From NCBI RefSeq assembly GCF_024502345.1, contig NZ_JALDNN010000001.1: a stretch of DNA of 64,000 bases, one strand, 5' to 3'. Shown piece after piece: positions 26,279-49,233 of the stretch. This DNA is from Escherichia coli. Its GTDB lineage: Bacteria > Pseudomonadota > Gammaproteobacteria > Enterobacterales > Enterobacteriaceae. The position numbers and the translations under genes are program-made. The notes beneath the pieces were generated by a model. It was not told where the DNA came from. It saw nothing but the letters and a program-made list of their open reading frames with translations, and did not search any database. Every line of letters begins with the position of its first letter. Positions within the stretch are counted from its first letter, which is position 1.

Positions 26279-28521
<2,243 letters not shown>

Positions 28522-28534
28522 TTCCGGTCTCCTG

Positions 28535-29290
28535 TCAGAACTTATAACCACGATGCAGCGCCACAACCCCTGCCGTCAGATTGTAGTAGTCGACACTTTC
28601 GAATCCGGCATCCTGCATCATGGCTTTCAGGGTATCCTGATCGGGATGCATACGGATGGATTCTGCCAGATAACGGTAGCTGTCGGCGTCGTTCGCGACC
28701 AGTGAGCCAATACGCGGCAGCACATGGAAGGAGTATGCATCATAGGCTTTGCTCAGCGGCTCGATAATTGGCTTCGAGAACTCAAGCACCAGCAGGCGGC
28801 CGCCGGGTTTCAGCACGCGATACATTGAACGCAGTGCTTTATCTTTGTCGGTGACGTTACGCAGACCAAACGAAATGGTGATGCAATCAAAGGTGTTATC
28901 CGGGAACGGCAGCGCCTCAGCGTTCGCCTGAACATACTCAACGTTGCCAATCACACCGATATTACGCAGCTTCTCGCGGCCCATTTTGAGCATGGATTCA
29001 TTGATATCAGCAAGGACCACTTTGCCAGTTTCTCCGACCAGGCGGGAGAATTTCGCTGTCAGGTCGCCGGTGCCACCAGCCAGATCCAGCACGGTCTGCC
29101 CACGGCGTACGCCGCTGCAATCAATCGTGAATCGCTTCCACAAACGATGAATACCAAATGACATCAAATCATTCATGACATCGTATTTTGATGCCACGGA
29201 ATGGAAAACGTGGGCGACCATATCCGCTTTTTGTTCCTTCGCGACGGTCTGAAAACCAAAGTGCGTCGTTTCTTGTGACTTATCCACCAT
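28535..29290 (-). CDS. ubiE: ubiquinone/menaquinone C-methyltransferase UbiE
   Basis: 251 aa, SAM-binding motif LDLAGGTGD. Confidence 0.95.
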
Positions 29291-29384
29291 CTCAATGCCT
29301 GCTCATCAAAAAATTGTTCCAGAAGTGTAACAGATTGGGCGTCGATGCCCTAGATTTCTACCCGGCTTAACTACTCCCAATGGG

Positions 29385-30812
29385 CTAGCGCGACTGCTGA
29401 TTATATTCATCATCGCGTTGATAAGCTTCATCATTCGGCTGCTCCGGAACCGACCGAAGTCGATACTCTTCATCCTGGCTCACCGCCTGTTCAGCCAAAT
29501 CCGGATTAATCTCGCGTTTAATTTCTACTCCTAAACCGCGAAACGCTTCTGCCTGCGCCAGCACATTTCCGCGACCTGAAGAGAGTTTTTTCATTGCCTG
29601 GCGGTAGTTATCCTGCGCTTTGTCGAGACTTTGACCAATCGCTGACATGTCATCGATGAACAAACGCATCTTGTCGTACAGCTTGCTGGCACGATCGGCG
29701 ATTTGCTGGGCGTTGCGGCTTTGATGCTCATAACGCCACAGGTTGGCGATAGTGCGCAGCGCCACCAGCAGCGTAGTCGGGCTAACCAGCATGATATTGT
29801 TTTTCAACGCTTCGGTGATCAGCTCCGGCTGGCGGTCAAGCGCCAGTAAAAAAGCGGGTTCAACGGGAATAAACATCAGCACGTAATCCAGAGTTCGCAG
29901 CCCCGGCAGCTGTTGATAATCTTTGCGTCCCAGCAAACGGATATGGTTACGCACCGACGCGATATGTTCCTGTAGCGCGCTTTCGCGGGTGTAGTCGTCT
30001 TCGGCGTTAAAATAGCGTTCATAGGCGACCAGCGTCATTTTGGCGTCGATCACCACATCTTTTCCCTGCGGCAGCCGCACGATGACATCCGGCTGCATCC
30101 GCGAGCGGGCGTCATTTTCGATGCTGACCTGGGTTTCATATTCATACCCTTCACGCAGACCGGAAGCCTCCAGCACCCGCGTCAATACTACCTCGCCCCA
30201 GTTGCCCTGGGTTTTATTGTCGCCTTTCAGCGCGCGCGTCAGGTTGATCGCTTCCTGGGCCATTTGCGCGTTGAGTTGCTGGAGATTGCGAATTTCGTGG
30301 GTCAGGGTATGGCGTTCTTGTGCTTCTTTACCGAAGCTGTCCTGAACCTGACGGCGGAAACCGTCCAGTTGTTCACGTAGCGGCGACAACAGGCTGTTCA
30401 GACTCTGACGGTTTTGCTCATCAACCCGGCGATTGCTGTGCTCAAAAATACGGTTGGCGAGGTTTTCAAACTGCTCACTGAGGCGCTGCTCGCTGTTAAT
30501 CATCTGGCGAATTTTATCGTCAGCATGTTGCTGTGCGGCTTCCATCCGCGTGGTTACTTCACGCAGATCGGCCTCCAGAGAGGTGTTAATACTTTGCAGG
30601 CTGCGCACTTCGTTATTGAGTAACTCGCACTCTGCACGCCAGTGCTCGCTTTGGGTAATTTGTTGTTTTGCCGCGCTTAACTCCGCGACCATCTCTTCAC
30701 GTTCAGCTAATTGCTCGGCTTTTTGCTGCGCATGTTGATAACTGGCAAACAGCCAGCCAATTGCCACACCCACCAACGCAATAACTGCGTAAACCATGAT
30801 TGAGAAATCCAC
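29385..30812 (-). CDS. rmuC: DNA recombination protein RmuC
   Basis: 475 aa, N-terminal TM then coiled coil. Confidence 0.9.
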   Translation of the reverse strand: MDFSIMVYAVIALVGVAIGWLFASYQHAQQKAEQLAEREEMVAELSAAKQQITQSEHWRAECELLNNEVRSLQSINTSLEADLREVTTRMEAAQQHADDKIRQMINSEQRLSEQFENLANRIFEHSNRRVDEQNRQSLNSLLSPLREQLDGFRRQVQDSFGKEAQERHTLTHEIRNLQQLNAQMAQEAINLTRALKGDNKTQGNWGEVVLTRVLEASGLREGYEYETQVSIENDARSRMQPDVIVRLPQGKDVVIDAKMTLVAYERYFNAEDDYTRESALQEHIASVRNHIRLLGRKDYQQLPGLRTLDYVLMFIPVEPAFLLALDRQPELITEALKNNIMLVSPTTLLVALRTIANLWRYEHQSRNAQQIADRASKLYDKMRLFIDDMSAIGQSLDKAQDNYRQAMKKLSSGRGNVLAQAEAFRGLGVEIKREINPDLAEQAVSQDEEYRLRSVPEQPNDEAYQRDDEYNQQSR

Positions 30813-30952
30813 AACGCCTCCTGACGCAACAACTTACCCGCACAAAATAGAATTGTGCTGTACAAACGTCCAGTTGGAAAGGCATTTCCTGCGAGGCGCT
30901 ACGCAAAAATACAAAAGGCCGAACGCGTCGGCCTTCAGACAGGAGAAGAGAA

Positions 30953-31714
30953 TTACAGCAGACGACGCGCCGCTTCCACCACGATTTTCACCGCTTGGCT
31001 TTCAGTTTGTTTCATCGTCTCAGCATTCGGGATCTCTTGCTGGGTGCGGTTAACGATAACACCCGCTACCATACCGGCACGCAGGCCCTGACTTGCACAC
31101 ATGGTCAGCAGGGTTGCAGATTCCATTTCATAGTTCATTACGCCCATCGCCTGCCACTCTTCCATAGAACCTTTAAAGTGACGAACTACGCGACCAGAGT
31201 AAGTATCGTAACGTTCCTGACCTGGGTAGAAGGTATCAGAAGAAGCTGTCACGCCAACGTGAGTTGTCGCGCCAATGGATTTCGCAGCTTCAACCAGCGC
31301 AGTCGTACATTCGAAATCAGCGACAGCCGGGAATTCCAGCGGTGCGAAGTGCAGGCTCGCGCCATCCAGACGGACAGACGCCGTGGTAACCAGGACATCA
31401 CCCACATTAATATGCGGCTGAATAGCGCCCGTTGTACCGATACGCAGGAAGGTGCGAATGCCCAGCTGTGCCAGCTCTTCAACAGCAATAGAGGTAGACG
31501 GGCCGCCGATACCGGTAGAGCAGACGATAACAGGTTTACCATCCAGCTCTGCACGCCAGGTAGTGAATTCGCGGTGAGATGCCAGCTTAACCGGCTTATC
31601 CATCAGCGCGGCGATCTTTTCCACACGATCCGGGTCGCCAGGGACGATGGCAAGCGTAGCCCCTTGTAAATCGTTTTTAGTGAGGCCGAGATGAAAAACA
31701 TCAGACTTGGACAT
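30953..31714 (-). CDS. udp: uridine phosphorylase
   Basis: ORF 30953..31720; the start is [13 protein letters not shown] at 31714 (253 aa). Confidence 0.95.
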
Positions 31715-31975
31715 ATACAACTCCTCTGTGAATCGGTTTAGTCAGAAGAAGCAAAAAGACACTTTACCGAAGGGTTTAACATTTTTTCGTGATACTCATC
31801 ACCATGACGCAAATGCGTTGCATAAATTTACCCACCAAAAGTGATGCAAATCACATAAATCACTCTTCATTCTGCAGGACTGCATAAAAGATGAGCCGAT
31901 TCAGGCAATGTGATTTGTTGCATGCTGACTATAGTTAACATTGCGCAACATTTTTATAAGGGTACGGAGAATACC

Positions 31976-32788
31976 ATGGCAACAACACAACAATCTGGAT
32001 TTGCACCTGCTGCATCGCCTCTCGCTTCGACCATCGTTCAGACCCCGGACGACGCGATTGTGGCGGGCTTCACCTCTATCCCTTCACAAGGGGATAACAT
32101 GCCTGCTTACCATGCCAGACCAAAGCAAAGCGATGGCCCACTGCCAGTGGTCATTGTAGTGCAGGAAATTTTTGGCGTGCATGAACATATCCGCGACATT
32201 TGTCGCCGTCTGGCGCTGGAGGGGTATCTGGCTATCGCACCTGAACTTTACTTCCGCGAAGGCGATCCGAATGATTTTGCCGATATCCCCACGTTGCTTA
32301 GCGGTCTGGTAGCAAAAGTGCCTGACTCGCAGGTGCTGGCCGATCTCGATCATGTCGCCAGTTGGGCTTCCCGCAACGGCGGCGATGTTCATCGTTTAAT
32401 GATCACCGGATTCTGCTGGGGTGGACGTATCACCTGGCTGTATGCCGCGCATAATCCACAGCTAAAAGCCGCAGTGGCGTGGTACGGCAAACTGACGGGC
32501 GACAAGTCGTTGAATTCACCGAAACAACCTGTTGATATCGCAACCGATCTTAACGCGCCGGTTCTCGGCTTATATGGCGGTCTGGATAACAGTATTCCGC
32601 AGGAGAGCGTTGAAACCATGCGCCAGGCGCTGCGGGCTGCTAATGCGAAAGCAGAGATTATCGTGTACCCGGATGCCGGGCATGCATTCAACGCTGATTA
32701 TCGCCCGAGCTATCATGCCGAATCTGCGAAAGATGGCTGGCAGCGTATGCTGGAATGGTTTAAGCAGTATGGTGGGAAGCGGAGTTAG
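31976..32788 (+). CDS. ysgA: dienelactone hydrolase-family protein YsgA
   Basis: ORF 31910..32788; the start is MATTQQSGF at 31976; alpha/beta hydrolase motif GFCWGG. Confidence 0.85.
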   Translation: MATTQQSGFAPAASPLASTIVQTPDDAIVAGFTSIPSQGDNMPAYHARPKQSDGPLPVVIVVQEIFGVHEHIRDICRRLALEGYLAIAPELYFREGDPNDFADIPTLLSGLVAKVPDSQVLADLDHVASWASRNGGDVHRLMITGFCWGGRITWLYAAHNPQLKAAVAWYGKLTGDKSLNSPKQPVDIATDLNAPVLGLYGGLDNSIPQESVETMRQALRAANAKAEIIVYPDAGHAFNADYRPSYHAESAKDGWQRMLEWFKQYGGKRS

Positions 32789-33181
32789 TTTCCTCTTAGT
32801 CTATATTTGAGATGGTGAGTGAACGAGTGCGTTTTGCTGCCATCTCTGTCCCCCAAAAAATAATCAGTATGAATTGATTGGAGATTACGACTCCGCTATT
32901 TGACCTTAAAAAAGTCGGCAAGTCATAGTCATAAATGAGTCTCTTCAATGGAAGACACCTTAGAGATTTACCATCAACTCCCATTCACAAACAAACATTA
33001 ATTATTATCAACACATTCACATTAATTATAAATCATCTCAGACCTTCCTGATAAAAAGATATTAAAGTGAAACATTTTGTTTTTCACATTTTAGTTCATC
33101 ACTTTTAGGCGTAAATAAAGGTAAAAAAAACAACAATACTATTTCTCTTTCACAAAAGAATTAACAAAAGGTTTTTCAAGG

Positions 33182-33657
33182 ATGAGTGATATTATTTACC
33201 TGACCATAACCGGAGAACAACAAGGATGTATTTCCTCTCGTTGTGGAACGAGCGCATCAATAGGTAATCGCTGGCAGATTGGCCATGATGATGAAATCTT
33301 CGCGTTCTCGCTCTCTAATAGTATTACGAATACAGGCAAAGGGTCATAATTGCATGGCCTTAGTTTCTGTAAATTGATTGACAAAAGCTCCCCGTTACTT
33401 ATTAACGCTATTAACAATAACGAGCAGTTGTTCATGGAGTTTGACTTCTATCGGATCAATAGGTTTGGTCGATGGGAGAAATATTACAACATTCAACTCC
33501 GCGGCGCGCTCTTATCAGCAATCAATCACCTGTTTACTGAGAACAATCTGGATACAGAAGCCATCACTGTCAGTTATGAATATATACTCTCCAGGCATCT
33601 GATTGCTAATACTGAATTTAGTTATTTGGCATTTCCCGATAACTACAACCGTCTGTT
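33182..33657 (+). pseudogene. Hcp-family (T6SS tube protein) domain, N-terminal part of a disrupted Hcp-fused toxin gene
   Basis: ATG at 33182 gives MSDIIYLTITGEQQG...; the frame hits TAA at 33347-33349 and resumes in the same frame with the Hcp-like stretch FCKLIDKSSPLL. The reading frame then runs into the IS903 end at 33658. Confidence 0.7.
33649..33657. repeat. IS903 target-site duplication, left copy (CCGTCTGTT)
   Basis: The identical 9-mer recurs at 34715-34723, immediately outside the two inverted repeats. Confidence 0.9.
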
Positions 33658-34714
33658 GGCTTTGTTGAATAAATCGAACTTTTGCTGAGTTGAAGGATCA
33701 GATCACGTATCTTCCCGACAACGCAGACCGTTCCGTGGCAAAGCAAAAGTTCAAAATCACCAACTGGCCCACCTACAATAAAGCCCTCATCAACCGTGGC
33801 TCCATAACTTTCTGGCTGGATGATGAAGCTATTCAGGCCTGGTATGAGTCAGCAACACCTTCTTCACGAGGCAGACCTCAGCGCTATTCTGACCTTGCCA
33901 TCACGACTGTGCTGGTCATTAAACGCGTATTCAGGCTGACCCTGCGCGCTGCGCAGGGCTTTATTGATTCCATTTTTTCTCTGATGAACGTTCCGCTACG
34001 CTGCCCGGATTACAGCTGTGTCAGCAGGCGGGCAAAGTCGGTTAATGTCAGTTTCAAAACGCCCACCCGGGGTGAAATCGCACACCTGGTAATTGATTCC
34101 ACCGGGCTGAAGGTCTTCGGTGAAGGCGAGTGGAAAGTCAAAAAGCATGGCCAGGAACGCCGCCGTATCTGGCGTAAGCTGCATCTCGCCGTTGACAGTA
34201 AAACACATGAAATCATCTGCGCTGACCTGTCGCTGAACAACGTTACGGACTCAGAGGCCTTCCCCGGGTTAATCCGGCAAACCCACCGGAAAATCAGGTC
34301 AGCCGCCGCCGATGGCGCTTACGATACCCGGCTATGTCACGATGAACTGCGGCGTAAGAAAATCAGCGCGCTTATCCCTCCCCGAAAAGGTGCGGGTTAC
34401 TGGCCCGGTGAATATGCAGACCGTAACCGTGCAGTGGCTAATCAGCGAATGACCGGGAGTAATGCGCGGTGGAAATGGACAACAGATTACAACCGTCGCT
34501 CGATAGCGGAAACGGCGATGTACCGGGTAAAACAGCTGTTCGGGGGTTCACTGACACTGCGTGACTACGATGGTCAGGTTGCAGAGGCTATGGCCCTGGT
34601 ACGAGCGCTGAACAAAATGACGAAAGCAGGTATGCCTGAAAGCGTGCGTATTGCCTGAAAACACAACCCGCTACGGGGGAGACTTACCCGAAATCTGATT
34701 TATTCAACAAAGCC
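33658..34714 (+). mobile_element. IS903-type insertion sequence (IS5 family), 1057 bp
   Basis: Terminal 18-bp inverted repeats GGCTTTGTTGAATAAATC (33658-33675, and reverse complement at 34697-34714); internal 322-aa ORF; flanked by a 9-bp direct repeat. Confidence 0.9.
33690..34658 (+). CDS. IS903-type DDE transposase
   Basis: 322-aa ORF matching my recollection of the IS903/IS102 transposase. Confidence 0.85.
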   Translation: MKDQITYLPDNADRSVAKQKFKITNWPTYNKALINRGSITFWLDDEAIQAWYESATPSSRGRPQRYSDLAITTVLVIKRVFRLTLRAAQGFIDSIFSLMNVPLRCPDYSCVSRRAKSVNVSFKTPTRGEIAHLVIDSTGLKVFGEGEWKVKKHGQERRRIWRKLHLAVDSKTHEIICADLSLNNVTDSEAFPGLIRQTHRKIRSAAADGAYDTRLCHDELRRKKISALIPPRKGAGYWPGEYADRNRAVANQRMTGSNARWKWTTDYNRRSIAETAMYRVKQLFGGSLTLRDYDGQVAEAMALVRALNKMTKAGMPESVRIA

Positions 34715-34723
34715 CCGTCTGTT
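34715..34723. repeat. IS903 target-site duplication, right copy (CCGTCTGTT)
   Basis: Exact 9-bp match to 33649-33657. Confidence 0.9.
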
Positions 34724-34753
34724 TATACCACGGCCAAAAACTAAAGCTGGTAA

Positions 34754-35395
34754 TGGTTCAAAACACTTAATAGTAAAGCGGTTGGCAGACTGCTTGCTGC
34801 TGGCGGCATATACAATGGGAATATCGAAGGATTCAGGGAAACAGCAGACAAGTTGGGGGGAGATGCACCTGCTGGTTACGATCAATTTATGGATAACAAA
34901 GGGTTACTCATCGCTGGTGCTTCAATAGTTGCTGGAGCAGTTCTGGGGAGAATGAGACTCCCTGATTTGGAATCACTTGAGCATTTCGGAGCCAGAGGAG
35001 CAGTATCAGGAAGACCATTTAATCCCGACCTTGCCGGTGGTCCAATAGAAAATCTGACGACAGATGGCGTAACAATCAACAGGGAAGGTATCGCTATTGT
35101 TGAAAAACACATAGCCAGATTTGGTCATGACCCTGTAAATGAAGTGATGATCAATAGACTGAAAGACATTGAGAAAGGAAAAATCCCCCCAGAACAAGTA
35201 GATCTTAACTTCTATACTCATGAGTGTCGGGAATATCAGCGTTACTGTAATCTTGGTTGGGAAACAGGACAACCTGATGGTGACGCAGGCTATGCACTCT
35301 GGAATCATACGCATACTGCTACTCTAGAAGATTATAAACTTAAGGGAGAACTTAATGACTTATACCACCAGGATGCACTTGACTATGATAACTGA
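34754..35395 (+). pseudogene. toxin-like C-terminal domain of the disrupted Hcp-fused gene (family not identified)
   Basis: Open frame of 213 codons after a stop at 34751; no ATG near its 5' end (the ORF track uses TTG at 34853). It begins with a Gly/Ala-rich linker (GRLLAAGGIYNGNIEGF...DKLGGDAPAGYDQF). It is in a different frame from the pre-insertion Hcp frame. Confidence 0.5.
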
Positions 35396-35630
35396 AACTG
35401 AAATTAACGTACTGAAAGTTATGGCTGAGAAAGATATAAACTGGAACTGGATGAATCTCGATCGCACACTATCCATAAGGCAAATTCCAGGATTCGGTAA
35501 TGTTGTTAACATTGTTAACAAATTAGCTAACGAGGGTTTGGTTATTATTGAGGATAGCGGACATAAGTCTATGCCTCACTACCACGTTACTGAAAAGGGA
35601 TACAATTTCGTGAAAAGTGAGAATAAATAA
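35355..35630 (+). CDS. putative cognate immunity protein (small cytoplasmic protein)
   Basis: 91-aa ORF with AAGGGAGAA Shine-Dalgarno 6 bp upstream of the ATG at 35355; overlaps the 3' end of the toxin-like ORF (alternative ATG at 35385 overlaps its TGA). Confidence 0.5.
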   Translation: MTYTTRMHLTMITETEINVLKVMAEKDINWNWMNLDRTLSIRQIPGFGNVVNIVNKLANEGLVIIEDSGHKSMPHYHVTEKGYNFVKSENK

Positions 35631-35777
35631 CGTAGCGTTGATTACTGAACAAATCGCTCAGGATTATATTTTGCGTAAAAATGATTCGGTTATTTCTGTA
35701 TCTGAACGGGCGCAGATAGCAAAATGGCTTCCGGTGATGGAAGCCATCAGATTATTGGCAAAGTGCGCGTTGTTCAT

Positions 35778-35818
35778 GCCGGATGCGGCGTGAACGCCTT
35801 GTCCGGCCAACAAAACTC
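35778..35818. repeat. REP element
   Basis: gccggatgcggcgtgaacgccttgtccggcc. Confidence 0.7.
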
Positions 35819-35914
35819 AAAAATTCAATAAATTGCATAAATTATGTAGGCCTGGTATCAGGCAGTTTTGCCTCTTTCATCGTACTGCAATTTACAGTGA
35901 CTCGTTAATATTCA

Positions 35915-38176
35915 TCATCCCCGACGCAAATTCTGCGCCGCCTGCACCATGTTCGCCAGTGCCGCGCGGGTTTCTGGCCAGCCGCGCGTTTTCAGGCCAC
36001 AGTCCGGGTTGACCCACAGGCGCTCTGCCGGAATGCGTTTTGCCGCTTTCTTCAGCAAGGCTTCAATCCATTCCACGCTCGGTACGTTTGGCGAGTGAAT
36101 GTCATAGACGCCTGGACCGATTTCATTCGGATAATCAAACTCTTCAAACGACTCCAGCAACTCCATGTCGGAACGCGAGGTTTCGATGGTGATGACGTCT
36201 GCATCCAGTGCCGCAATCGAATCCATGATGTCGTTGAACTCGCAATAACACATGTGAGTGTGGATTTGTGTGTCATCTTTCGCCACGGCGGCGTTGATAC
36301 GGAAGGCCTCCACGCCCCACTGGAGATATGCATCCCAGTCGCTACGACGCAGCGGTAAACCTTCGCGCAGCGCCGGTTCATCAATCTGGATGATGCCAAT
36401 TCCTGCGGCTTCCAGGTCCGCCACTTCATCACGCAGCGCCAGCGCAATTTGTTTGGCGATGGTTTCACGGCTGACATCTTCACGCGGGAACGACCAGCAG
36501 AGAATGGTCACCGGGCCAGTCAGCATCCCTTTCACCGGTTTATCAGTCAGAGATTGCGCATACTTCGCCCACTCCACGGTAATCGGTGCCGGGCGGCTAA
36601 TGTCACCAATGACAATCGGTGGCTTCACGCAGCGGGAACCGTAGCTCTGTACCCAACCGTTTTGCGTAAAGACAAATCCGTCGAGGTGCTCGCCAAAGTA
36701 TTCCACCATGTCATTACGCTCGGCCTCGCCATGTACCAGCACATCCAGTCCCAAACGTTCCTGTTCAACAATGGCCTGCTTGATATGTTCCGCAATGCCC
36801 GTGCGGTAGTTGTTGGCGTCGAGATTACCCTTTTTGAAATCCAGACGCAGGGTACGAATTTCCGTGGTTTGCGGGAAGGAACCAATCGTGGTGGTCGGCC
36901 ACGCTGGCAGTTTAAAACGCGCACGCTGGGCTTCGGCACGCACTTCATAGACATTCGCACGCTGGCTGTCCTGGGCGGTGATCGCCGCCAGACGCTTTTC
37001 TACTGCCGGGTTATGTACACGAGTAGAGTGACGACGCGCCTGAATTGGAGCGCTCCACTCTGCCAGAGCTGCCGTATCACCACTGTTCAGCGCATCTCGC
37101 AGCAGTGCCAGTTCATGACATTTTTGCAGGGCGAAGGCAAACCAGCTTTTCACTTCTGCATCAAGACGCGTTTCCACGCTCAGGTCGATGGGGCTGTGCA
37201 GCAACGAGCAGGAAGATGCCACCCACAAATCACGTTTGCCGACAATGTCCTTAATTTGCGCATATTTCTCAGTAAGATCGGCGCGCCAGACGTTACGACC
37301 ATTGATCAGACCCGCAGACAGCAGCCAGTCAGAAGGCAGGCGCTTGTGCAGTTCAACAACGTCATCTTTACCATGTACAAGGTCCACATGCAGCCCCTGA
37401 ACAGGCAGCGCAGTAATCGTGTCGAGATTTGGCGTTACGCCTTCAAAATAGGTGGTCAGCAGCAGTTTCACCTGTCCCTGGAGCGCGTCGTAAGCGGGTT
37501 TGTATGCGTCCAGCCACGCCTGTGGTAGTTCCAGTACCAGCGCGGGTTCATCAATCTGTACCCACTCGATGCCGCGTTTCGCCAGTTCTGCCAGCACTTG
37601 CTGATAAACCGGCAGAATGTCGTTCAGCAGGCTAAGGCGGTCAAACTGTTCACCTTTCACTTTCCCCAGCCACAGGTAAGTAACCGGCCCCAGCAGCACA
37701 GGCTTAACGTTGTGGCCCAGCGCCAGCGCCTCGTCCACTTCCTCCAGCAGCTGCGTCCAGGTCAGTTTGAACTGTTGGCCTTTAACGAACTCCGGCACCA
37801 TGTAGTGATAGTTGGTGTTAAACCATTTGGTCATTTCCGCTGCCGCCGCAGGTTCGCCAGTCGGCGCACGTCCACGACCAATACGGAACAGGGTGTCGAT
37901 ATCTACCGAACCGTCTTTGTTCTGATGACGTGGCGGAACATTACCCAGCAGCAAACTGGTGGTCAGTACATGATCGTACCAGGCAAAATCGCCCACCGGC
38001 AGCAGGTCGATACCCGCTTGCTTTTGTTGATCCCAGTGACGAGCACGCAGTTCACGCCCTACTGTCAGCAGTTCTTCACGCGTGGAGTTCCCCGCCCAAT
38101 AACTTTCTTGCGCTTTTTTCAGCTCGCGACGCAGGCCAACGCGAGGGAAACCGAGGGTGTGATTCAATATTGTCAT
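35915..38176 (-). CDS. metE: cobalamin-independent methionine synthase
   Basis: 753 aa, begins [30 protein letters not shown]. Confidence 0.95.
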
Positions 38177-38411
38177 TTTTCTTCCTCTAATTATATGTAA
38201 ATCCTATGGATTTTGAATTTAGGGAAGGCGGCAAGTTTATTCATCCCCGGGAGCTTACTGAAGTAAGTGACCGGGGTGGAGAAACGCAGCCAACGCACCA
38301 TAAATTTAAAAGACGAAGGATTTTAGCCGTCCAGATGTTTACACATCCATAATTGGCGGTTACTGTATATTCCTCAAGCGCAAATTATTCATGCCGAAGT
38401 GAAGGACTTTC

Positions 38412-39365
38412 ATGATCGAAGTAAAACACCTGAAAACGCTACAAGCGTTGCGGAACTGCGGCTCTCTCGCAGCCGCTGCGGCGACGTTGCATCAGACGCA
38501 ATCCGCCCTGTCTCACCAGTTTAGCGATCTGGAACAACGCCTTGGCTTCCGGCTATTTGTGCGTAAGAGCCAGCCGCTACGCTTTACACCGCAGGGAGAA
38601 ATCCTGTTGCAACTGGCAAACCAGGTGCTGCCGCAAATCAGCCAGGCACTGCAAGCCTGCAATGAACCGCAGCAGACGCGTCTGCGCATTGCCATTGAGT
38701 GCCATAGCTGTATTCAGTGGCTGACGCCCGCGTTAGAAAATTTCCATAAGAACTGGCCGCAGGTAGAGATGGATTTTAAATCGGGCGTGACGTTTGACCC
38801 GCAGCCCGCGTTGCAACAGGGCGAGCTGGATCTGGTGATGACCTCCGATATCCTGCCGCGCAGTGGCCTGCATTATTCGCCGATGTTCGATTATGAAGTA
38901 CGCCTGGTGTTAGCACCTGACCATCCACTGGCGGCAAAAACGCGTATTACACCGGAAGATCTCGCCAGCGAGACGCTATTAATTTATCCGGTGCAGCGTA
39001 GTCGACTGGATGTCTGGCGGCATTTTCTTCAGCCGGCAGGCGTCAGCCCGTCACTGAAAAGCGTCGATAACACCTTATTGTTGATTCAGATGGTTGCCGC
39101 GCGGATGGGTATTGCCGCGCTACCGCATTGGGTAGTAGAGAGTTTTGAGCGCCAGGGTCTGGTGGTGACCAAAACCCTGGGCGAAGGCTTGTGGAGCCGA
39201 CTGTACGCCGCCGTGCGCGATGGCGAGCAGCGTCAGCCAGTTACGGAAGCGTTTATTCGCTCAGCGCGCAATCACGCCTGCGATCATCTGCCGTTTGTGA
39301 AGAGCGCGGAGCGACCCACTTACGATGCACCCACAGTGAGGCCAGGATCACCAGCGCGCCTGTAA
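38412..39365 (+). CDS. metR: LysR-family transcriptional regulator MetR
   Basis: 317 aa, begins [41 protein letters not shown]; divergent from metE. Confidence 0.95.
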
Positions 39366-40152
39366 TAAACGTTGGCCAGTGCGGCTGTTGGTGCCAGATA
39401 GCCAGGTTAACCAGCAGCCCTGCCGGAACGTGCATATTATTCATAATGCCCAGCGTTCCGGCGTCCACCTGCGTCGCGCCGTAGTTCCACATAAAGTAGC
39501 CAATCCCGGAAGCCACCACGCCAAGAAACACCAGAATGCCCCATTGCAACGTGGTTTGCGGCATTTTCTGCGCATTTCCCAGCAAGAACCATGCAATTAC
39601 CGCCACCAGGAACGCGCCAAGATAGAACCACGCAAAGGCGTTATGCTGCGGCATCGGGCGAGTTTCCATCAGGCGTTTGTAACCCACCATGCCGATGGCA
39701 AAAGTGATATTGGAGAGTTGCACCAGCAACAAGCCAGTCCAGAAATGGTCGGTGACCTGATCATAGCGAATAATCCCGGCACCAATCACCGCCAACAAGG
39801 CACTAAAAGCATATCCCCAGCGCAGACGGCGCTTACTCATGATGTCATAAATCAGCGTGATGTAGAGCGGCGTCAGTACGGTGAACAGCAGCAGTTCGGA
39901 AACCGTCAGGTAGAGATAAGCGCGGAAACTCAGCATATACATCACGCCGAGCTGCATCGCGCCCACCAGCATATACAGGCCGACTGTTTTCAGGCTATTG
40001 CCACGGGTACGCAGAAACGGCAGAAAAACGAGTGCCGCCAGGCCAACGCGCACCAGCACCGCAAAATAGCTATCGACGTGCCCCGCAAGGTACTCGCCAT
40101 AAAAGCTAAAGGAGAAGGCCCACAGAATCGTGGTGATGATAAGTAGCGCCAC
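39253..40152 (-). CDS. yigM: EamA/DMT-family membrane transporter YigM (biotin transporter BioP)
   Basis: 299-aa polytopic membrane protein; its 3' end overlaps the metR 3' end convergently by 113 bp. Confidence 0.85.
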
Positions 40153-40227
40153 AATGGAAAACTCTTTGATTAACGAGTATCCATTGTAGCGAAGTATCAG
40201 GTTGACAACTGACCAAATAAAGAACGA

Positions 40228-41028
40228 TTACGATAAATAGAGTTTACGCAGATAATGCGGCACCGCGTCGTCGGCATTAGTACCAATCACTTCCAGCTCG
40301 GGATGAAGGTCTTTCAGACGCTGGTGCGCACTGCCCATAATGCAGCCTTTCCCCGCCATCGACAGCATTTCGGCATCGTTCATCCCGTCACCAAACGCAA
40401 TACAATCCTTCAGGCTGTAGCCCAGTTTCTTCGCCACCGCTTCCAGCGCATGGCCTTTTGAAACGCCGCCCGCCATCACTTCCAGACAGGTTAAGGTAGA
40501 GAAACTAACGTTGACGCGATCGCCCCAACGAGCGTTAATCGCCTGCTCCAGCGGCAGCAGTTGTTCATGGGAATCGCAGGTGAAGAACACTTTGCTGACG
40601 CCTTCCGGCTCCAGTAATCCAGGCTCATACAGCGCATATTTGAACACCGCTTCTTTAAAAAAGCGCATCTCTTCCGGGCGATGGCGATTCATAAACCATT
40701 CGTCGTCGCGATAAACGTTAGTAATGATGTCCGGATTGTCGTTGACTACGCCAAACAGATCGCTGGCAATGTCGCGATCCAGGTTATGAGCAAAAATCAG
40801 ATTGCCATCCAGATCGTGAACGCGCGCGCCGTTGGAGGTGATCATGTACGACTTGATCTCCAGATTATCGCGAATTTGCCCCACATCAACGTGGTGACGA
40901 CCGGTCGCAAACACAAAGTTGATGCCGCGCGCGGTGAGCAGCTTCAGGGTTTCTTTGGCGTAAGGGGATAACGTATGGTCGGGAGAAAGTAACGTGCCAT
41001 CTAAATCAGACGCAACAACCTGGTACAT
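40228..41028 (-). CDS. yigL: HAD-family sugar/pyridoxal phosphate phosphatase YigL
   Basis: ORF 40228..41154; the start is MYQVVASDLDGTLL at 41028 (266 aa); HAD motif DLDGT. Confidence 0.9.
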   Translation of the reverse strand: MYQVVASDLDGTLLSPDHTLSPYAKETLKLLTARGINFVFATGRHHVDVGQIRDNLEIKSYMITSNGARVHDLDGNLIFAHNLDRDIASDLFGVVNDNPDIITNVYRDDEWFMNRHRPEEMRFFKEAVFKYALYEPGLLEPEGVSKVFFTCDSHEQLLPLEQAINARWGDRVNVSFSTLTCLEVMAGGVSKGHALEAVAKKLGYSLKDCIAFGDGMNDAEMLSMAGKGCIMGSAHQRLKDLHPELEVIGTNADDAVPHYLRKLYLS

Positions 41029-41035
41029 AAGAAAT

Positions 41036-42058
41036 TTAAACCTCTGTAGAGCGGTTTCCGCTGGGTGAGTTATGCCTGTTGAAAAAATCAACAATGGCGT
41101 GGAGCGCGACTGAGCGCATTGCGTCCTTTTCAAAAAGGATCTCATGGTAAGCACCTTTAATTACCAACGGTCGTCCTCCTTCGACAGGATGGCCCGCGGC
41201 GGTGCGGAGTTCACAAAAACGGTCATGCATGCGGTTATCCACCACGCGTTCCTCTTCAGCCTGCAAGAGAAGCGTTGGCGTGGCGTCATCACCCGCACCG
41301 GCTAACACCTGTTCGCCAGCCAGAATACTTTCGCGTACCCAATGGTAGGTCGGCCCACCGACGCGAATCGTTGGGTCATCAGCATAGAAGCGTAAGTTAC
41401 GTCGATATCGCTGTCTGCTGTGGGTCAGTACGTTGATAGCAAACGGCAACGCGCGCCAGCGCCCGGTGCCTATTGCATAGCCATCACGGAAACGTGGATG
41501 CGCTTCGGCCCAGTTGAGGATCTGCCGTGCCATAAATGACGGCATACGAATCACGATCCCAAACATTGGCGCAGTTAGCGCAATGGCGTCACATACACCT
41601 GGATGGCGTTGCAGAAATAATGTGGAGATCGCACCGCCCATCGAATGTGCCAGTATATAGCGTTTACGCCACGGACCGGGCTGGACCTCCTGTTGCCAGA
41701 ATGCCGCCAGATCATCAACATAATCATTAAAGCGATTAACATGCCCGAGATGCGGATCGGCTAACAGGCGACCGGAACGTCCCTGCCCGCGATGGTCGAT
41801 GATTAAGACATCAAACCCCAAATGGAACAAATCGTAGGCCAGTTCCGCATATTTTACGTAGCTCTCAATACGCCCCGGGCAGATGACTACCACCCGGTCA
41901 TGGTGCTGTGCGCGAAAACGGACAAAGCGCACCGGAATGTCATCCACACCAGTAAACTCTGCTTCATCACGCTGACGCCAGAAATCAGTCAGCGGTCCCA
42001 TGGTAAAAGCAGCAAACGCGTTTTCTCTTGTTTCCCAGTCTTTTTGCTGTTGAAACAT
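41036..42058 (-). CDS. pldB: lysophospholipase L2
   Basis: 340 aa, alpha/beta hydrolase GHSMGG motif. Confidence 0.9.
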   Translation of the reverse strand: MFQQQKDWETRENAFAAFTMGPLTDFWRQRDEAEFTGVDDIPVRFVRFRAQHHDRVVVICPGRIESYVKYAELAYDLFHLGFDVLIIDHRGQGRSGRLLADPHLGHVNRFNDYVDDLAAFWQQEVQPGPWRKRYILAHSMGGAISTLFLQRHPGVCDAIALTAPMFGIVIRMPSFMARQILNWAEAHPRFRDGYAIGTGRWRALPFAINVLTHSRQRYRRNLRFYADDPTIRVGGPTYHWVRESILAGEQVLAGAGDDATPTLLLQAEEERVVDNRMHDRFCELRTAAGHPVEGGRPLVIKGAYHEILFEKDAMRSVALHAIVDFFNRHNSPSGNRSTEV

Positions 42059-42168
42059 CGGGTAATCTGCCTCTTAAACCACGTAAAATCGTTTTTTTTA
42101 GCGTGCCTGACACAACGCTGCGACAGTAGCGTATTGTGGCACAAAAATAGACACACCGGGAGTTCATC

Positions 42169-42798
42169 ATGACCTTAGAATGGTGGTTTGCCTACCTGCT
42201 GACATCGATCATTTTAAGCCTGTCGCCAGGCTCTGGTGCAATCAACACTATGACCACCTCGCTCAACCACGGTTATCGCGGCGCGGTGGCGTCTATTGCT
42301 GGGCTTCAGACCGGACTGGCGATTCATATTGTGCTGGTTGGCGTGGGGTTGGGGACGCTATTTTCCCGCTCAGTGATTGCGTTTGAAGTGTTGAAGTGGG
42401 CAGGCGCGGCTTACTTGATTTGGCTTGGGATCCAGCAATGGCGCGCCGCTGGCGCAATTGATCTTAAATCGCTGGCCTCTACTCAATCGCGTCGACATTT
42501 GTTCCAGCGCGCAGTTTTTGTGAATCTCACCAATCCCAAAAGTATTGTGTTTCTGGCGGCGCTATTTCCGCAATTCATCATGCCGCAACAGCCGCAACAG
42601 CCGCAACTGATGCAGTATATCGTGCTCGGCGTCACCACTATTGTGGTCGATATTATTGTGATGATCGGTTACGCCACCCTTGCTCAACGGATTGCTCTAT
42701 GGATTAAAGGACCAAAGCAGATGAAGGCGCTGAATAAGATTTTCGGCTCGTTGTTTATGCTGGTGGGAGCGCTGTTAGCATCGGCGAGGCATGCGTGA
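42169..42798 (+). CDS. rhtB: homoserine/homoserine-lactone efflux protein RhtB (LysE family)
   Basis: 209 aa, begins [27 protein letters not shown]; contains an in-frame CCGCAACAG-type repeat (QQPQQPQ). Confidence 0.9.
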
Positions 42799-42807
42799 AA
42801 AATAATG

Positions 42808-42837
42808 TCGGATGCGGCGTAAACGCCTTATCCGACT
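42808..42837. repeat. REP element
   Basis: gtcggatgcggcgtaaacgccttatccgac. Confidence 0.7.
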
Positions 42838-42859
42838 TACTCTGAAGACGCGTCTGGCA

Positions 42860-43480
42860 TCACCGCGAAATAATCAAATGAATGCCAAATCCGGCAAATA
42901 ACGCCCCGGCAAAACCATCAATCCACTTCGCCAGACGTTGATAACCACGGCGCATTTGCGGCAGGGCAAACAGGCTGGCAACGACGGTAAACCACGCCAG
43001 TGTTTCGATAATAATCAACGCGAAAATGCCCCAGCGCTCAGTGGTGCCGACGTTATCGCCGACAAACAGCGAGAATACCGAACCAAAGTAGATAATCGCT
43101 TTCGGATTAGCGAGATTGGTCAGTAAACCTTTCAGGAAACTGCGCCCGCTTTTCGCCAGCTCAATCTGTGGTGCAGGCGCAGATACAGCCTCTTTTTTCA
43201 GTGCACCGCGTAGCATCTGGTAACCCATCCAGCAGAGATACAGGCCACCGCCAACCATAATCAGCGTATGCAGCCAGGCCATTTTTTCGATAATCAAATG
43301 CAGGCCAAGCAACGCAATCCCAGCCCAAACCATTACACCGCAGGTAATGCCCAGCACGCCCATCATCGCTTCTTTACGGGAACGACTGACAGCGGTCTGA
43401 GAGACAAAAAAGAAATCGGGACCGGGGCTCATAAGCGCCACAATATGCACCATGGCGACGGTGAGAAATAACATCAACAT
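42860..43480 (-). CDS. rhtC: threonine efflux protein RhtC (LysE family)
   Basis: 206 aa, begins MLMLFLTVAMVHIVALMSPGPDFFFV. Confidence 0.9.
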   Translation of the reverse strand: MLMLFLTVAMVHIVALMSPGPDFFFVSQTAVSRSRKEAMMGVLGITCGVMVWAGIALLGLHLIIEKMAWLHTLIMVGGGLYLCWMGYQMLRGALKKEAVSAPAPQIELAKSGRSFLKGLLTNLANPKAIIYFGSVFSLFVGDNVGTTERWGIFALIIIETLAWFTVVASLFALPQMRRGYQRLAKWIDGFAGALFAGFGIHLIISR

Positions 43481-43543
43481 ACATTTGACTCGCGGGGGAA
43501 ACGTTTACGGAGTCTTCATCCTGGCACTTTTTTATGCCGCTGA

Positions 43544-45373
43544 CTACTCTTCGTCGTCGCCGTCGACATGCGCACGAATCAGCGTCATAAACGGTTTGCC
43601 AAAGCGTTCCAGCTTGCGCATCCCAACGCCGTTAACGCTGAGCATTTCGCTGGCGGTGATCGGCATCTGTTCAGCCATCTCAATCAAGGTTGCGTCGTTA
43701 AACACCACGTACGGCGGGACATTGCTTTCATCGGCAATCGATTTACGCAGTTTGCGTAATTTGGCGAACAGTTTGCGATCATAGTTGCCGCCGAACGATT
43801 TCTGCATCGCTTTCGGTTTGAGCGCCACGATACGCGGCACGGCAAGTTGCAAAGAGGATTCGCCGCGCAGCACCGGGCGCGCGGCCTCTGTCAGTTGGAG
43901 GGCAGAATGCTGGGCAATATTTTGCGTCACCAGGCCGAGGTGAATCAGCTGGCGGATCACGCTCACCCAATGTTCATGGCTTTTATCACGGCCCATGCCA
44001 TAGACTTTCAGTTTGTCATGACCATAGTCGCGGATACGCTGGTTATTAGCACCACGAATCACTTCCACCACATAACCCATCCCAAACCGCTGATTCACAC
44101 GACCAATGGTGGAAAGCGCAATCTGTGCATCGGTTGAACCGTCGTACTGTTTCGGCGGATCGAGGCAGATATCGCAGTTTCCGCACGGCTCCTGCCGCCC
44201 TTCGCCAAAGTAGTTCAGCAGTACCAGACGACGGCAAGTTTGCGCTTCGGCAAACGCGCCCATCGCATTGAGTTTGTGGCGCTCGATATCCTGCAACTGC
44301 CCCTGCGGCTTCTCTTCCAGACAACGGCGCAGCCACGCCATATCAGCCGGATCGTAAAACAGCATCGCTTCCGCAGGCAGGCCATCACGCCCGGCGCGAC
44401 CGGTTTCCTGATAATAGGATTCGATATTGCGCGGAATATCAAAGTGGACCACGAAGCGAACGTTTGGTTTATTGATGCCCATGCCGAACGCCACCGTCGC
44501 CACCACAATTTGCAGGTCATCGCGCTGGAATTTCTCCTGCACGTCGGCGCGGACATTATTTTCCAGCCCGGCATGATAGGCCGCCGCGCTAATACCCTTG
44601 CTTTGCAGGCGCGCAGCGGTGTCTTCTACTTTCGCCCGGCTGTTGCAGTAGATAATGCCGGACTTACCGCGCTGTTCCTGCACGTAGCGCATCAACTGAT
44701 CGAGCGGTTTGAATTTCTCCATCAGCATGTAGCGAATATTCGGACGGTCAAAACTGCTGATTTGAATCAGCGGATCGTTCAGCCCCAGCAGGCGCACGAT
44801 ATCCTGGCGCGTGGTGTCGTCGGCTGTGGCGGTCAGCGCCATAAACGGCAGCGTCGGGAACCGCTGGCGCAACTGACCGAGCGCGGCATATTCCGGGCGG
44901 AAATCGTGGCCCCATTGGGAGATACAGTGCGCTTCATCAACGGCTAATAACACCGGATTCCAGTGCGCCAGATGCTCAAGAAAGTTATCCAGCATCAGGC
45001 GTTCCGGGGCGATATAAAGCAGACGAATTTGCCCGGTGCGGCAGCCTGTCATCACTTCAAGTTGCTGTTCGCGGGTTTGCGTCGAGTTAAGGCACGCCGC
45101 CGCCACGCCGTTGGCTTGCAGTTGATCCACCTGATCTTTCATCAACGAAATCAGCGGTGAAACAATCACGGTAAGGCCGTTTAGCAATAAGGCAGGAATT
45201 TGATAGCAAAGGGATTTTCCGCCACCGGTGGGCATGACGACCAGGCAATCGCGACCGGAAAGCACAGTGTCGATAATTTCTTCCTGGCCGGGGCGAAACT
45301 GTTGGTAGCCAAAGGTTTCTTGTAAAACCTGTTTAGCTCCGGACTCCAGATTCAACACTTCCGCCTGCGCCAC
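43544..45373 (-). CDS. recQ: ATP-dependent DNA helicase RecQ
   Basis: ORF 43544..45379; helicase motifs ([16 protein letters not shown]) and Zn-binding CxxC cluster. The start is either ATG at 45379 or GTG at 45373. Confidence 0.95.
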
Positions 45374-45505
45374 ATTCACCCCGATTGCCTGAAATAAAAA
45401 CAGGCGCTATTTTCAGCGCCTGCGCGAGAAACTGCAATGCTTTTAGTCTCTGAGAGGGTAATCCTGGATGCTGGATTCCAGATTTGCCAACCACTCAACC
45501 GTTCA

Positions 45506-46375
45506 TCAAAACAAATCGTTTAGCATAACCCCCACACCGACACGGGTCTGGTTGAAGTTATAGTCGATGAGCGATTCGCCATAGCCGCTGTAAACCTGAG
45601 TATAAAGGCGCACATGTTTGGTGATCGGGTAACTTAAGCCTAACTCCGCGCCGCCGTAGCCGGTGTTCCAGTTGTACTGTCCTTTCGCACTGAGCACCGC
45701 ATCACCGAGGTGATAGCCGATTTTAAGCTGGTAGTAACCCATATATTTGGTGATATCCGGGTTATCGTCAGTATTACCCACCACATACCACGGCTTCACT
45801 TCTACCAGCCAGTTACCGTTTTCTGCCATCAGGCGAGTATAAAGGCGGTTCCAGCTGCGGGAGGTCGGGTCTGAACGCCCGTTAGAGTCGTGGTTATACC
45901 CCATCTCCACATCGCGCAGTGTCCAGCCTGCAAAACGGTAATCGGTGGCAAAACCGAGGAACAATTGCGGTTCGTAGTTGGTTTCACGAAACGGTGAAGA
46001 CTCTTCGCTATTGGACAGTTGCCACCAGGATTTTTGCGTATAAGACGCACCCAACACCGAGTTCGGGCCTAAAATCCCACGCCACAGCGGAAATGCCAGG
46101 CTCAACTGAAACTTTACTTCATCCTTACGCGCATTTTCCGCCCAGTCGTAACTGGCAATCGCTTCTTTATTCAGATCGCTGGTTTGTGTGTAGATGAGGT
46201 AGTTGGTGTCATAAGGATAGAGCGTGAACGGATTATCATGCTCCTGCAGCATATTGGCGATAATACTGCCACGCACCGCTGGCGCGTCATGCACCTCTTT
46301 CACCGTTGCCTCTTGTGCATATACTGCCATAGGCAACATAAACACCGGCAACAACCAGCCCTGCAGAGTCCGCAT
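45506..46375 (-). CDS. pldA: outer-membrane phospholipase A
   Basis: 289 aa with signal peptide and beta-barrel pattern. Confidence 0.9.
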   Translation of the reverse strand: MRTLQGWLLPVFMLPMAVYAQEATVKEVHDAPAVRGSIIANMLQEHDNPFTLYPYDTNYLIYTQTSDLNKEAIASYDWAENARKDEVKFQLSLAFPLWRGILGPNSVLGASYTQKSWWQLSNSEESSPFRETNYEPQLFLGFATDYRFAGWTLRDVEMGYNHDSNGRSDPTSRSWNRLYTRLMAENGNWLVEVKPWYVVGNTDDNPDITKYMGYYQLKIGYHLGDAVLSAKGQYNWNTGYGGAELGLSYPITKHVRLYTQVYSGYGESLIDYNFNQTRVGVGVMLNDLF

Positions 46376-46539
46376 CGGTCGTGTTCTCCGTAACGAATTA
46401 TTGATAAGGTGAATGTTTTTCTGCGGGCTATTTTACATACTTAACTCCATTGCCGTTAGTTATCCCTTCCTAAAGTAGAAACCAACAACAAAGAAGCATA
46501 AAATCAACATTTCATTAACCAATGAAGTGTAAGGATGAT

Positions 46540-47007
46540 ATGTCTGCCGTACTGACCGCTGAACAAGCCCTGAAATTAGTGGGTGAGATGTTTGTTTATC
46601 ACATGCCATTTAACCGCGCATTGGGGATGGAACTGGAGCGTTACGAAAAAGAGTTCGCACAGCTGGCCTTTAAAAATCAGCCGATGATGGTGGGTAACTG
46701 GGCGCAAAGCATTTTGCACGGCGGAGTCATTGCGTCGGCGCTGGATGTCGCCGCCGGTCTGGTGTGCGTGGGAAGTACCTTAACCCGCCACGAAACCATC
46801 AGTGAAGATGAACTACGCCAGCGGCTATCGCGGATGGGGACCATTGATCTTCGCGTTGATTATCTGCGCCCAGGCAGGGGCGAGCGTTTTACTGCTACCA
46901 GTAGCCTGTTGCGTGCAGGCAATAAAGTCGCCGTCGCCCGCGTTGAATTACACAATGAAGAACAGCTTTATATTGCCAGTGCCACCGCCACCTATATGGT
47001 AGGTTGA
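46540..47007 (+). CDS. yigI: thioesterase-superfamily (hotdog) protein YigI
   Basis: ORF 46522..47007; the start is [12 protein letters not shown] at 46540 (155 aa). Confidence 0.85.
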
Positions 47008-47058
47008 AGACATAAAAGCAGGTAAACTGCTGTTACCAATTAAAAATGAGTATTCCCG

Positions 47059-47946
47059 ATGGATGCAAAACAAACGCGGCAGGGCGTATTACTCGCTCTT
47101 GCCGCTTATTTTATTTGGGGTATTGCGCCAGCATACTTCAAGCTGATTTACTACGTGCCCGCCGATGAAATCCTGACGCATCGCGTGATCTGGTCGTTTT
47201 TCTTTATGGTGGTGCTGATGAGCATTTGCCGCCAGTGGTCCTATTTAAAAACGCTGATTCAGACGCCACAGAAAATTTTTATGCTGGCAGTCTCTGCCGT
47301 GCTGATTGGTGGCAACTGGCTACTGTTTATCTGGGCGGTGAACAATCACCATATGCTGGAAGCGAGCCTTGGTTACTTTATTAACCCGCTGGTGAACATT
47401 GTGCTGGGGATGATTTTCCTCGGCGAGCGATTCCGCCGGATGCAATGGCTGGCGGTGATTCTGGCGATATGTGGCGTGTTAGTCCAGCTGTGGACTTTTG
47501 GTTCGCTACCTATTATCGCGCTGGGACTGGCATTTAGTTTTGCCTTCTACGGTCTGGTACGCAAGAAGATTGCCGTTGAAGCGCAAACCGGCATGTTAAT
47601 TGAAACCATGTGGCTGCTGCCCGTGGCGGCAATTTACCTGTTTGCTATTGCCGACAGCTCAACCAGCCATATGGGGCAAAACCCGATGTCGCTGAATTTA
47701 CTGCTGATCGCCGCCGGTATTGTCACTACCGTACCGCTGTTGTGTTTTACCGCCGCTGCCACGCGCTTGCGTCTCTCAACGTTAGGCTTTTTCCAGTACA
47801 TTGGCCCGACGCTGATGTTCCTGCTGGCTGTGACGTTTTATGGTGAAAAACCGGGTGCCGATAAGATGGTGACTTTCGCCTTTATTTGGGTGGCGCTGGC
47901 AATTTTTGTGATGGATGCGATTTATACGCAGCGTAGAAAAAGTTAA
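47059..47946 (+). CDS. rarD: EamA-family transporter RarD
   Basis: 295-aa membrane protein. Confidence 0.9.
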   Translation: MDAKQTRQGVLLALAAYFIWGIAPAYFKLIYYVPADEILTHRVIWSFFFMVVLMSICRQWSYLKTLIQTPQKIFMLAVSAVLIGGNWLLFIWAVNNHHMLEASLGYFINPLVNIVLGMIFLGERFRRMQWLAVILAICGVLVQLWTFGSLPIIALGLAFSFAFYGLVRKKIAVEAQTGMLIETMWLLPVAAIYLFAIADSSTSHMGQNPMSLNLLLIAAGIVTTVPLLCFTAAATRLRLSTLGFFQYIGPTLMFLLAVTFYGEKPGADKMVTFAFIWVALAIFVMDAIYTQRRKS

Positions 47947-47992
47947 GAATTAACATGGGTAGGCCGTTTAATGAGCCTACCCACTGACTTAT

Positions 47993-48337
47993 TTATCTTT
48001 TTTTGAAAAAAATTAAGATAAGAAAAAGAACAATATTTGTTACAGGAAGTACCCCCAAAACTCCCCAGTACTTACTCCATCCTAGAGACATCGTATATCT
48101 ACCAAGGATTTGACAAAACCCAAAACTTAACCCTATACCTATACTTCTTAAATTTAATGTCGTAGTCAGGCTTAAAATAAATAGAACAAGGATGGTAATA
48201 GCCCACCACAATAACCATGCCTTAACAAAATCAGATTTTTTGCTGTAAGGTTCTTTACCCAAGAACAACTGCCAAAAGTTACCATTCCCCATATAGAATC
48301 CATTCCCCAAGATATTGTTTATAGAATAAAAATACAT
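47993..48337 (-). CDS. hypothetical small inner-membrane protein (possibly the yigG equivalent)
   Basis: 114-aa ORF with two or three hydrophobic segments in an AT-rich stretch; strand and identity not verified. Confidence 0.35.
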   Translation of the reverse strand: MYFYSINNILGNGFYMGNGNFWQLFLGKEPYSKKSDFVKAWLLWWAITILVLFILSLTTTLNLRSIGIGLSFGFCQILGRYTMSLGWSKYWGVLGVLPVTNIVLFLILIFFKKR

Positions 48338-48616
48338 TCCAATTATATTTAATTAAAATATACCCCATCAATAAAAACTTACACACTCTAAATTACTACT
48401 GTATAGTTATCAATGCAAAGACTGCTATATTGCATATATATATGCAAACCTCATAATTCAGGTAATATATATATTCAAAACAATTATATATAAAAAACAA
48501 TGTAAAAAATATTCAAATCATCCATCAGAAATATATTCTACCCATCCAGGCTTGAGCATTTATCACGCTTTCAGTTCATAATCTATACATTAACATCATG
48601 GTCAATATTAATAACT

Positions 48617-48895
48617 TTGAATGATATCAACCTGGCTTTGAGTTTTATTCTGGTTATTAATAATACCTATGTAAATATCAATATTGGAGCAAAAAGAATA
48701 AGAGATACTGGATGTAAGGCAATCTACTTTGTATTGATTTCATTGGGTTTGACACTTTTTTCTATTATCTCTGCAGCAATTGAAGGGGTGAGATGTGAGT
48801 CATTAAGCGTCCAACTCAACGTGGCATGGATATTATTCACAACAATTATGTTATCTGCGATTCCCTCGGCTAAAATGTCGCTGTCAGCACACTAA
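48617..48895 (+). CDS. hypothetical small membrane protein (possibly the yigF equivalent)
   Basis: 92-aa ORF, hydrophobic, AT-rich context. Confidence 0.3.
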   Translation: MNDINLALSFILVINNTYVNINIGAKRIRDTGCKAIYFVLISLGLTLFSIISAAIEGVRCESLSVQLNVAWILFTTIMLSAIPSAKMSLSAH

Positions 48896-48920
48896 CTTAC
48901 TCACAGCGACATCGTATAGT

Positions 48921-49218: not shown

Positions 49219-49233
49219 GGTAATGACTCCAAC

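Follow-up and report, generated by a model that had tools for sequence, protein, structure and literature searches.

A complete IS903B element at an already disabled hcp-toxin gene in an Escherichia coli chromosome

Did an insertion sequence (IS) silence a working type VI secretion system (T6SS) effector, or did it enter a gene that had already been lost? This question is raised by a 64,000-nucleotide (nt) stretch of Escherichia coli DNA (contig NZ_JALDNN010000001.1 of assembly GCF_024502345.1; hereafter the window, meaning the whole stretch analysed), in which an IS903-type element sits in an orphan gene for an hcp-toxin fusion, with ysgA (dienelactone hydrolase) on one side and metE on the other. 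The comparisons made in the current study favor the second answer. We put the probability at roughly 95% that a complete IS903B was recently inserted, as a simple event, in the E. coli chromosome at an hcp-toxin gene that was already non-functional.

Structure and identity of the element

The element and its immediate flanks consist of the following features (aa, amino acids):

33649 to 33657, no strand: left copy of the 9-bp target-site duplication CCGTCTGTT, a single occurrence at the empty site of strain FDAARGOS_943
33658 to 34714, plus strand: complete IS903B, 1057 bp, 100% identical to copies annotated as IS903B
33658 to 33675, plus strand: left terminal inverted repeat GGCTTTGTTGAATAAATC, 18 bp, from sequence comparison of the ends
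33690 to 34658, plus strand: transposase gene, 322 aa from TTG as in the RefSeq annotation (NF033579, WP_000654812.1)
34697 to 34714, minus strand: right terminal inverted repeat, 18 bp, complementary to the left one without mismatch, from sequence comparison of the ends
34715 to 34723, no strand: right copy of the 9-bp target-site duplication CCGTCTGTT

The ends of the element are formed by GGCTTTGTTGAATAAATC and its exact reverse complement, with complementarity over 18 of 18 bp that breaks at position 19; the terminal inverted repeats of IS903 are 18 bp long. With up to two mismatches allowed, GGCTTTGTTGAATAAATC was found at only two places in the 64-kb window, both of them ends of the element, where 0.01 occurrences would be expected by chance, and thus a single IS903B copy is present here and no composite transposon. 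On both sides the element is abutted by the 9-mer CCGTCTGTT, and the probability that a 9-mer matches by chance at fixed positions is 4^-9, i.e., about 4e-6. The transposase open reading frame (ORF) is uninterrupted and fills the element, giving 322 aa from the TTG start and 307 aa from a GTG at 33735, the latter being the form of the classical IS903 transposase. The residues D121, D193, and E259 (numbering of the 307-aa form) are present, and these correspond to the positions of the IS903 catalytic triad. The original prediction for this DNA had described a length of 1057 bp, perfect 18-bp inverted repeats, and an uninterrupted transposase ORF. All three held on re-examination, as did its claim that the 9-mer flanks the element on both sides, and the same 9-mer occurs once at the empty site.

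Copies that match the element at 100% over its 1057 bp are present in many E. coli chromosomes and also in plasmids of Escherichia, Salmonella, Citrobacter, and other enterobacteria, identical copies being common on enterobacterial plasmids. All these identical copies carry a coding sequence named 'IS5-like element IS903B family transposase' by RefSeq, and on one of them the RefSeq coding sequence was seen to be the same TTG-start protein of 322 aa, WP_000654812.1. The transposase matches the NCBIfam model NF033579 (IS5 family transposase, equivalog) with 357.6 bits, above the cutoff of 140, and covers the profile completely (289/289). IS903 elements have been described as 1057 bp long, with a tnp gene of 969 nt that starts at TTG and with target duplications of 9 bp (PMC9282650), and the 9-bp duplication is also given in another study (PMC2577343). 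The length, 18-bp repeats starting with GGC, the 9-bp duplication, a DDE transposase of the IS5 family, and identity to named copies, which together define the IS903 group, were all found here. Judged from its sequence, the element is of the IS903 type and more precisely IS903B (IS5 family, IS903 group). The original prediction had stopped at an IS903-type element, an assignment that is supported by the identity of 1057/1057 to IS903B copies and by the score against NF033579.

Compared with the IS903B copies of RefSeq, found in chromosomes and plasmids of E. coli, Klebsiella, Salmonella, and Citrobacter, nothing differs in the element, as sequence, inverted repeats, transposase (WP_000654812.1), and 9-bp duplication are the same. 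The classical IS903 of Tn903 and the IS602 of Tn602 are alike in their 1057 bp, their TTG-start tnp of 969 nt, and their 9-bp duplications (PMC9282650). These isoforms differ by a few per cent, the copy in the window being of the IS903B class. About half of the E. coli records that match the element fall below 99% identity. The element itself is thus already known, and the insertion site, unseen in the collections searched, is the sole new thing.

The empty site and the older lesions of the host gene

Deletion of the element in silico, together with one of the two 9-mers, gave an empty-site query of 2065 bp, which was used for comparison. An unbroken match at 100.0% was obtained with E. coli FDAARGOS_943, and the identities to FDAARGOS_944 and LR536431 were 100.0% and 99.9%. 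The exact empty site in FDAARGOS_943 directly proves a simple insertion with a genuine 9-bp duplication. The same match bears on the possibility that IS903B is an artefact of the assembly, i.e., a repeat copy misplaced where contigs were joined. Misassembly is frequent at IS copies, and the data consist of the assembled window alone. However, a misjoin would not yield a perfect 9-bp duplication of a single-copy target at both ends, and the product of precise excision is identical to a real empty site. We give such an artefact next to no chance.

The host gene is best described from its intact allele in strain 88-3493, which encodes 382 aa (WP_001612076.1). Residues 1 to 147 of this protein correspond to Hcp/TssD (TIGR03344, 125.8 bits with a cutoff of 58.9; PF05638, E 1.3e-13) and are followed by a linker and a C-terminal domain, an extension of about 235 aa. 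In other genomes the locus is annotated as tssD, and 3' fragments of it are annotated as 'colicin'. In the window, the gene and its surroundings comprise the following features (ET, extension toxin):

33182 to 33657, plus strand: 5' part of the hcp-ET pseudogene (Hcp/TssD domain, from TIGR03344 and PF05638 on the intact allele), ending at the insertion point
33347 to 33349, plus strand: pre-existing nonsense codon TAA, which is CAA in the intact allele
34724 to 35395, plus strand: 3' part of the hcp-ET pseudogene, with the linker and the C-terminal toxin domain in an uninterrupted ORF at 34853 to 35395
34757 to 34758, plus strand: pre-existing 1-bp deletion, TT versus TTT in intact alleles
35385 to 35630, plus strand: candidate immunity gene, 81 aa, intact, with an 11-nt overlap with the toxin stop codon; its role is proposed from its position

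IS903B lies at the end of the Hcp domain, on the boundary between Hcp and the linker. Once the element and one of the two 9-mers are taken out, the junction reads ...PDNYNRLFIPRPKTKAGNG..., with residues identical to those of the intact allele of 88-3493. The original prediction that such a removal restores a continuous Hcp reading frame is thus correct locally, at the junction (PDNYNRLFIPRPKTKAGNG), but does not extend to the gene as a whole. Codon 56 is an in-frame TAA at 33347-33349, where the intact allele has CAA (Gln56), and a single base is missing from the T run at 34757-34758 (TT; TTT in intact alleles), causing a frameshift 34 nt past the junction. Owing to this deletion, the Hcp part and the toxin-domain ORF (34853-35395, 180 aa) are in different frames. 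The hcp-toxin gene of the window therefore has three lesions, namely the TAA at codon 56, IS903B, and the 1-bp frameshift.

Strain FDAARGOS_943, in which the site is empty, carries both the TAA and the 1-bp deletion, and its gene is annotated as 'frameshifted; internal stop'. The presence of both lesions in this strain implies that they predate the insertion and that IS903B entered a pseudogene. By this comparison, both point lesions are older than the IS903B insertion. Each of them has also been found in other genomes: the exact 61-mer around the TAA occurs in 15 complete genomes, O121 strains included, and by alignment the TAA is also present in the O103 strain ML775, while the exact 65-mer with the 1-bp deletion occurs in 6 complete genomes, FDAARGOS_943 included.

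These observations decide whether IS903B itself inactivated a functional Hcp-toxin effector. The junction is in frame and locally reproduces the intact protein sequence, which speaks for such an inactivation. Against this, both the TAA and the 1-bp deletion are in a strain that matches the 2065-bp empty site at 100.0%, and the occurrence of the two lesions in further genomes indicates that the IS-free haplotype was already dead. An origin of the lesions after IS903B, followed by their transfer to empty-site strains, would be far less parsimonious. Inactivation by IS903B is thus very improbable, and the insertion, having met a gene that was already dead, would have been without effect on effector function; we infer that it was neutral.

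With regard to the two point lesions themselves, a nested order in which the TAA is the older one was considered and rejected, as three genomes carry the 1-bp deletion without the TAA and have a 22-bp deletion instead. The 1-bp deletion was found on two different 5' haplotypes, which suggests either intragenic recombination or recurrent slippage.

Recency, target choice, and potential activity

Across 27948-37225 (about 9.3 kb), IS elements aside, the window differs from FDAARGOS_943 by one base (position 32757). The IS differences in this tract are the IS903B described here and an IS1 that FDAARGOS_943 has at the 3' end of ysgA. Outside this tract, the flanking core genes differ from FDAARGOS_943 by about 1%, and the relatedness of the window to this strain is thus mosaic. 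Among complete E. coli genomes, the best identity to the backbone is 99.1%, over 36000-49200 (about 13 kb). The mosaic pattern and a backbone identity of no more than 99.1% suggest, from sequence comparison, that the segment was exchanged by recombination and that the source lineage is poorly sampled.

The same pattern raises the possibility that transposition took place in another strain and that the segment was imported with its IS by homologous recombination. The near-identical tract of about 9.3 kb, one base away from FDAARGOS_943 in a window that is otherwise about 1% different, is compatible with such an import, as is the finding that backbone identity reaches at most 99.1% among complete genomes. 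However, the collections searched yielded no strain with the junction, and an import would alter where the transposition occurred and not the nature of the feature. We consider an import unlikely.

The left junction, used as a 600-bp query with at least 80% coverage, was present in 0 of 5,426 complete E. coli genomes, and the exact 34-mer junction was found neither in the species-representative genome collection nor in the metagenome contig collection. These results support that the insertion is private to its lineage within the collections searched. The insertion is also probably recent, given the perfect duplication, an element sequence undiverged from the common IS903B, the one-base difference in the flanks over about 9.3 kb, and the absence of the junction elsewhere. 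The original prediction had called the insertion relatively recent from its clean signature, and this estimate gains from the near-identical empty-site flanks.

Several points weigh against this reading of the insertion as a recent, private event of a mobile element. The source genome lies outside the collections (best backbone identity 99.1%), and 'private' thus means unseen in what was searched. The view is limited to 64 kb of the genome, and the copy number given for IS903B covers that span only. The ability of this copy to move is likewise derived from its sequence. Moreover, PMC2577343 gives WTTYA-N9-TRAAW as the preferred target motif of IS903, and the site TACAA-CCGTCTGTT-TATAC fits it at about 5 of the 10 specified positions, although the motif is a preference and not a requirement. 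The insertion point is, on this motif comparison, not an IS903 hotspot, and the partial fit is consistent with an untargeted event at this locus.

The insertion would have followed the established course for DDE transposases and for IS903. Once bound to both 18-bp terminal inverted repeats, the transposase would link the element by its 3' ends to target strands whose cuts are staggered by 9 bp, and the 9-bp CCGTCTGTT would then be duplicated as the gaps are repaired. IS903 yields simple insertions as well as cointegrates. In the literature, its transposition has been described as primarily replicative (PMC3003695). Transposition of IS903B has been seen in vitro as well as in a patient, and the copy newly present in the chromosome was 1057/1057 identical to its plasmid donor (PMC10513040). 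The intact ends and ORF of the present copy, its D121, D193, and E259 residues, its identity to a widespread class, and the observed transposition of IS903B make it reasonable to regard this copy as possibly still active.

The insertions of IS903B in the mgrB gene of Klebsiella, which lead to colistin resistance, involve the same element and are also simple chromosomal insertions with 9-bp direct repeats, for which plasmid donors are likely (PMC10513040). On the other hand, the mgrB insertions were selected because they inactivate a working gene, whereas the copy described here hit a broken gene, with no apparent selective benefit. Promoter-like sites were not above chance (9 versus 5.8 ± 1.9), and none faces outward at the right end of the IS; nothing here suggests that the IS influences the toxin and immunity ORFs downstream. 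No Rfam family was found in or near the element.

The host locus in E. coli and the remainder of the window

The locus has also been damaged in other strains. In HCP4S3_I4 and in O145 strains, an IS3-family element is inserted at the ysgA-metE hcp-toxin locus. FDAARGOS_943 has an IS1 just upstream of the hcp-toxin gene, in the neighbouring 3' end of ysgA, and other strains have a 22-bp deletion (equivalent to 33376-33397). A Shigella sonnei protein labelled 'IS1 orfB' covers 58% of a 214-aa query at 96% identity. Overall, in many E. coli lineages the locus is decaying, each time independently, and the IS903B insertion is one more such event and not a targeted one. The DNA downstream of the insertion point is far more variable than that upstream, as the 61-mer of the Hcp N-terminal part (33317-33377) occurs in 839 complete genomes and the 65-mer of the linker (34724-34788) in 77, a pattern to be expected where a conserved Hcp is followed by toxin tails that have diverged.

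The toxin and immunity ORFs are less affected. In most of the decayed alleles compared (with the TAA, the 1-bp deletion, the 22-bp deletion, or IS903B), the toxin ORF and the candidate immunity gene are uninterrupted. The only toxin ORF to be interrupted among all compared alleles is that of HCP4S3_I4, which is cut by the IS3-family element, and the candidate immunity ORF is intact in every allele examined, a set to which HCP4S3_I4 does not belong. The 81-aa product of this ORF is the hypothetical protein WP_000627421.1, encoded at the same position in all compared genomes, and it matches no NCBIfam model. DNA similar to the toxin-immunity module was detected in 848 of the 5,426 complete E. 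coli genomes, including UTI89 and 536; 112 of these have it at an identity of at least 99%, and the rest mostly at 60-90%.

The architecture of Hcp with a C-terminal extension toxin and an immunity gene (Hcp-ET/ETI) is treated in a review (PMC6730261). The intact host gene resembles the Hcp-ET effectors in its N-terminal Hcp/TssD, its extension of about 235 aa, and the small downstream gene that overlaps the stop codon. The toxin domain of the host gene matches no Pfam family, PDB sequence, or solved fold, so that none of the classes Hcp-ET1-5 is given to it, and in the window the gene is a three-lesion pseudogene. The structural model of the toxin domain is a confident prediction with no match among solved structures. 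Homologues of the domain are labelled 'colicin' or 'HNH endonuclease' by their sources, and in these homologues the same domain also follows N-terminal parts of the pyocin-S (PF06958), PF26362, PF14449, and PF21431 types, such varied partners being expected for a polymorphic toxin module. That the C-terminal domain is an uncharacterised toxin fold mislabelled as 'colicin' or 'HNH endonuclease', and that the uninterrupted toxin and immunity ORFs point to selection for the immunity gene or to an internally initiated toxin-immunity cassette instead of neutral decay, is a proposal that we regard as unlikely.

Elsewhere in the window, further features were observed:

7705 to 12805, minus strand: complete rRNA operon (5S, 23S, two tRNAs, 16S)
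27916 to 28167: match to the Erse small RNA (sRNA) family
49219 to 49986: complete IS1 of 768 bp in the variable region between rarD and corA, a second strain-specific insertion
49210 to 49218 and 49987 to 49995: 9-bp duplication CTCAAATTG flanking this IS1
59429 to 59860 and 59960 to 60937: ORF between lptM and cyaY, apparently split
60934 to 62256: tandem paralogue of the preceding ORF, intact, 440 aa

Neither FDAARGOS_943 nor LR536431 has the IS1 between rarD and corA at that site, and in both the overlap of the flanks is exactly 9 bp. Of the region between lptM and cyaY, about 2.6 kb (59616-62182) are absent from FDAARGOS_943, which keeps a fragment annotated as 'DKNYY family protein'.

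Taken together, the insertion is a textbook case of IS903B with an exact empty-site comparator, and it has little importance beyond annotation, where the hcp-toxin gene should be given as a three-lesion pseudogene, two of whose lesions are older than IS903B. It is not to be taken as the loss of a working T6SS effector. The site could be used as a strain-specific marker, with a PCR over 33600-34800 to type the lineage. An element best known from resistance plasmids and from the disruption of mgrB in Klebsiella has here inserted in the chromosome of an E. coli strain, and what is found is a known element at a new, functionally inconsequential site.
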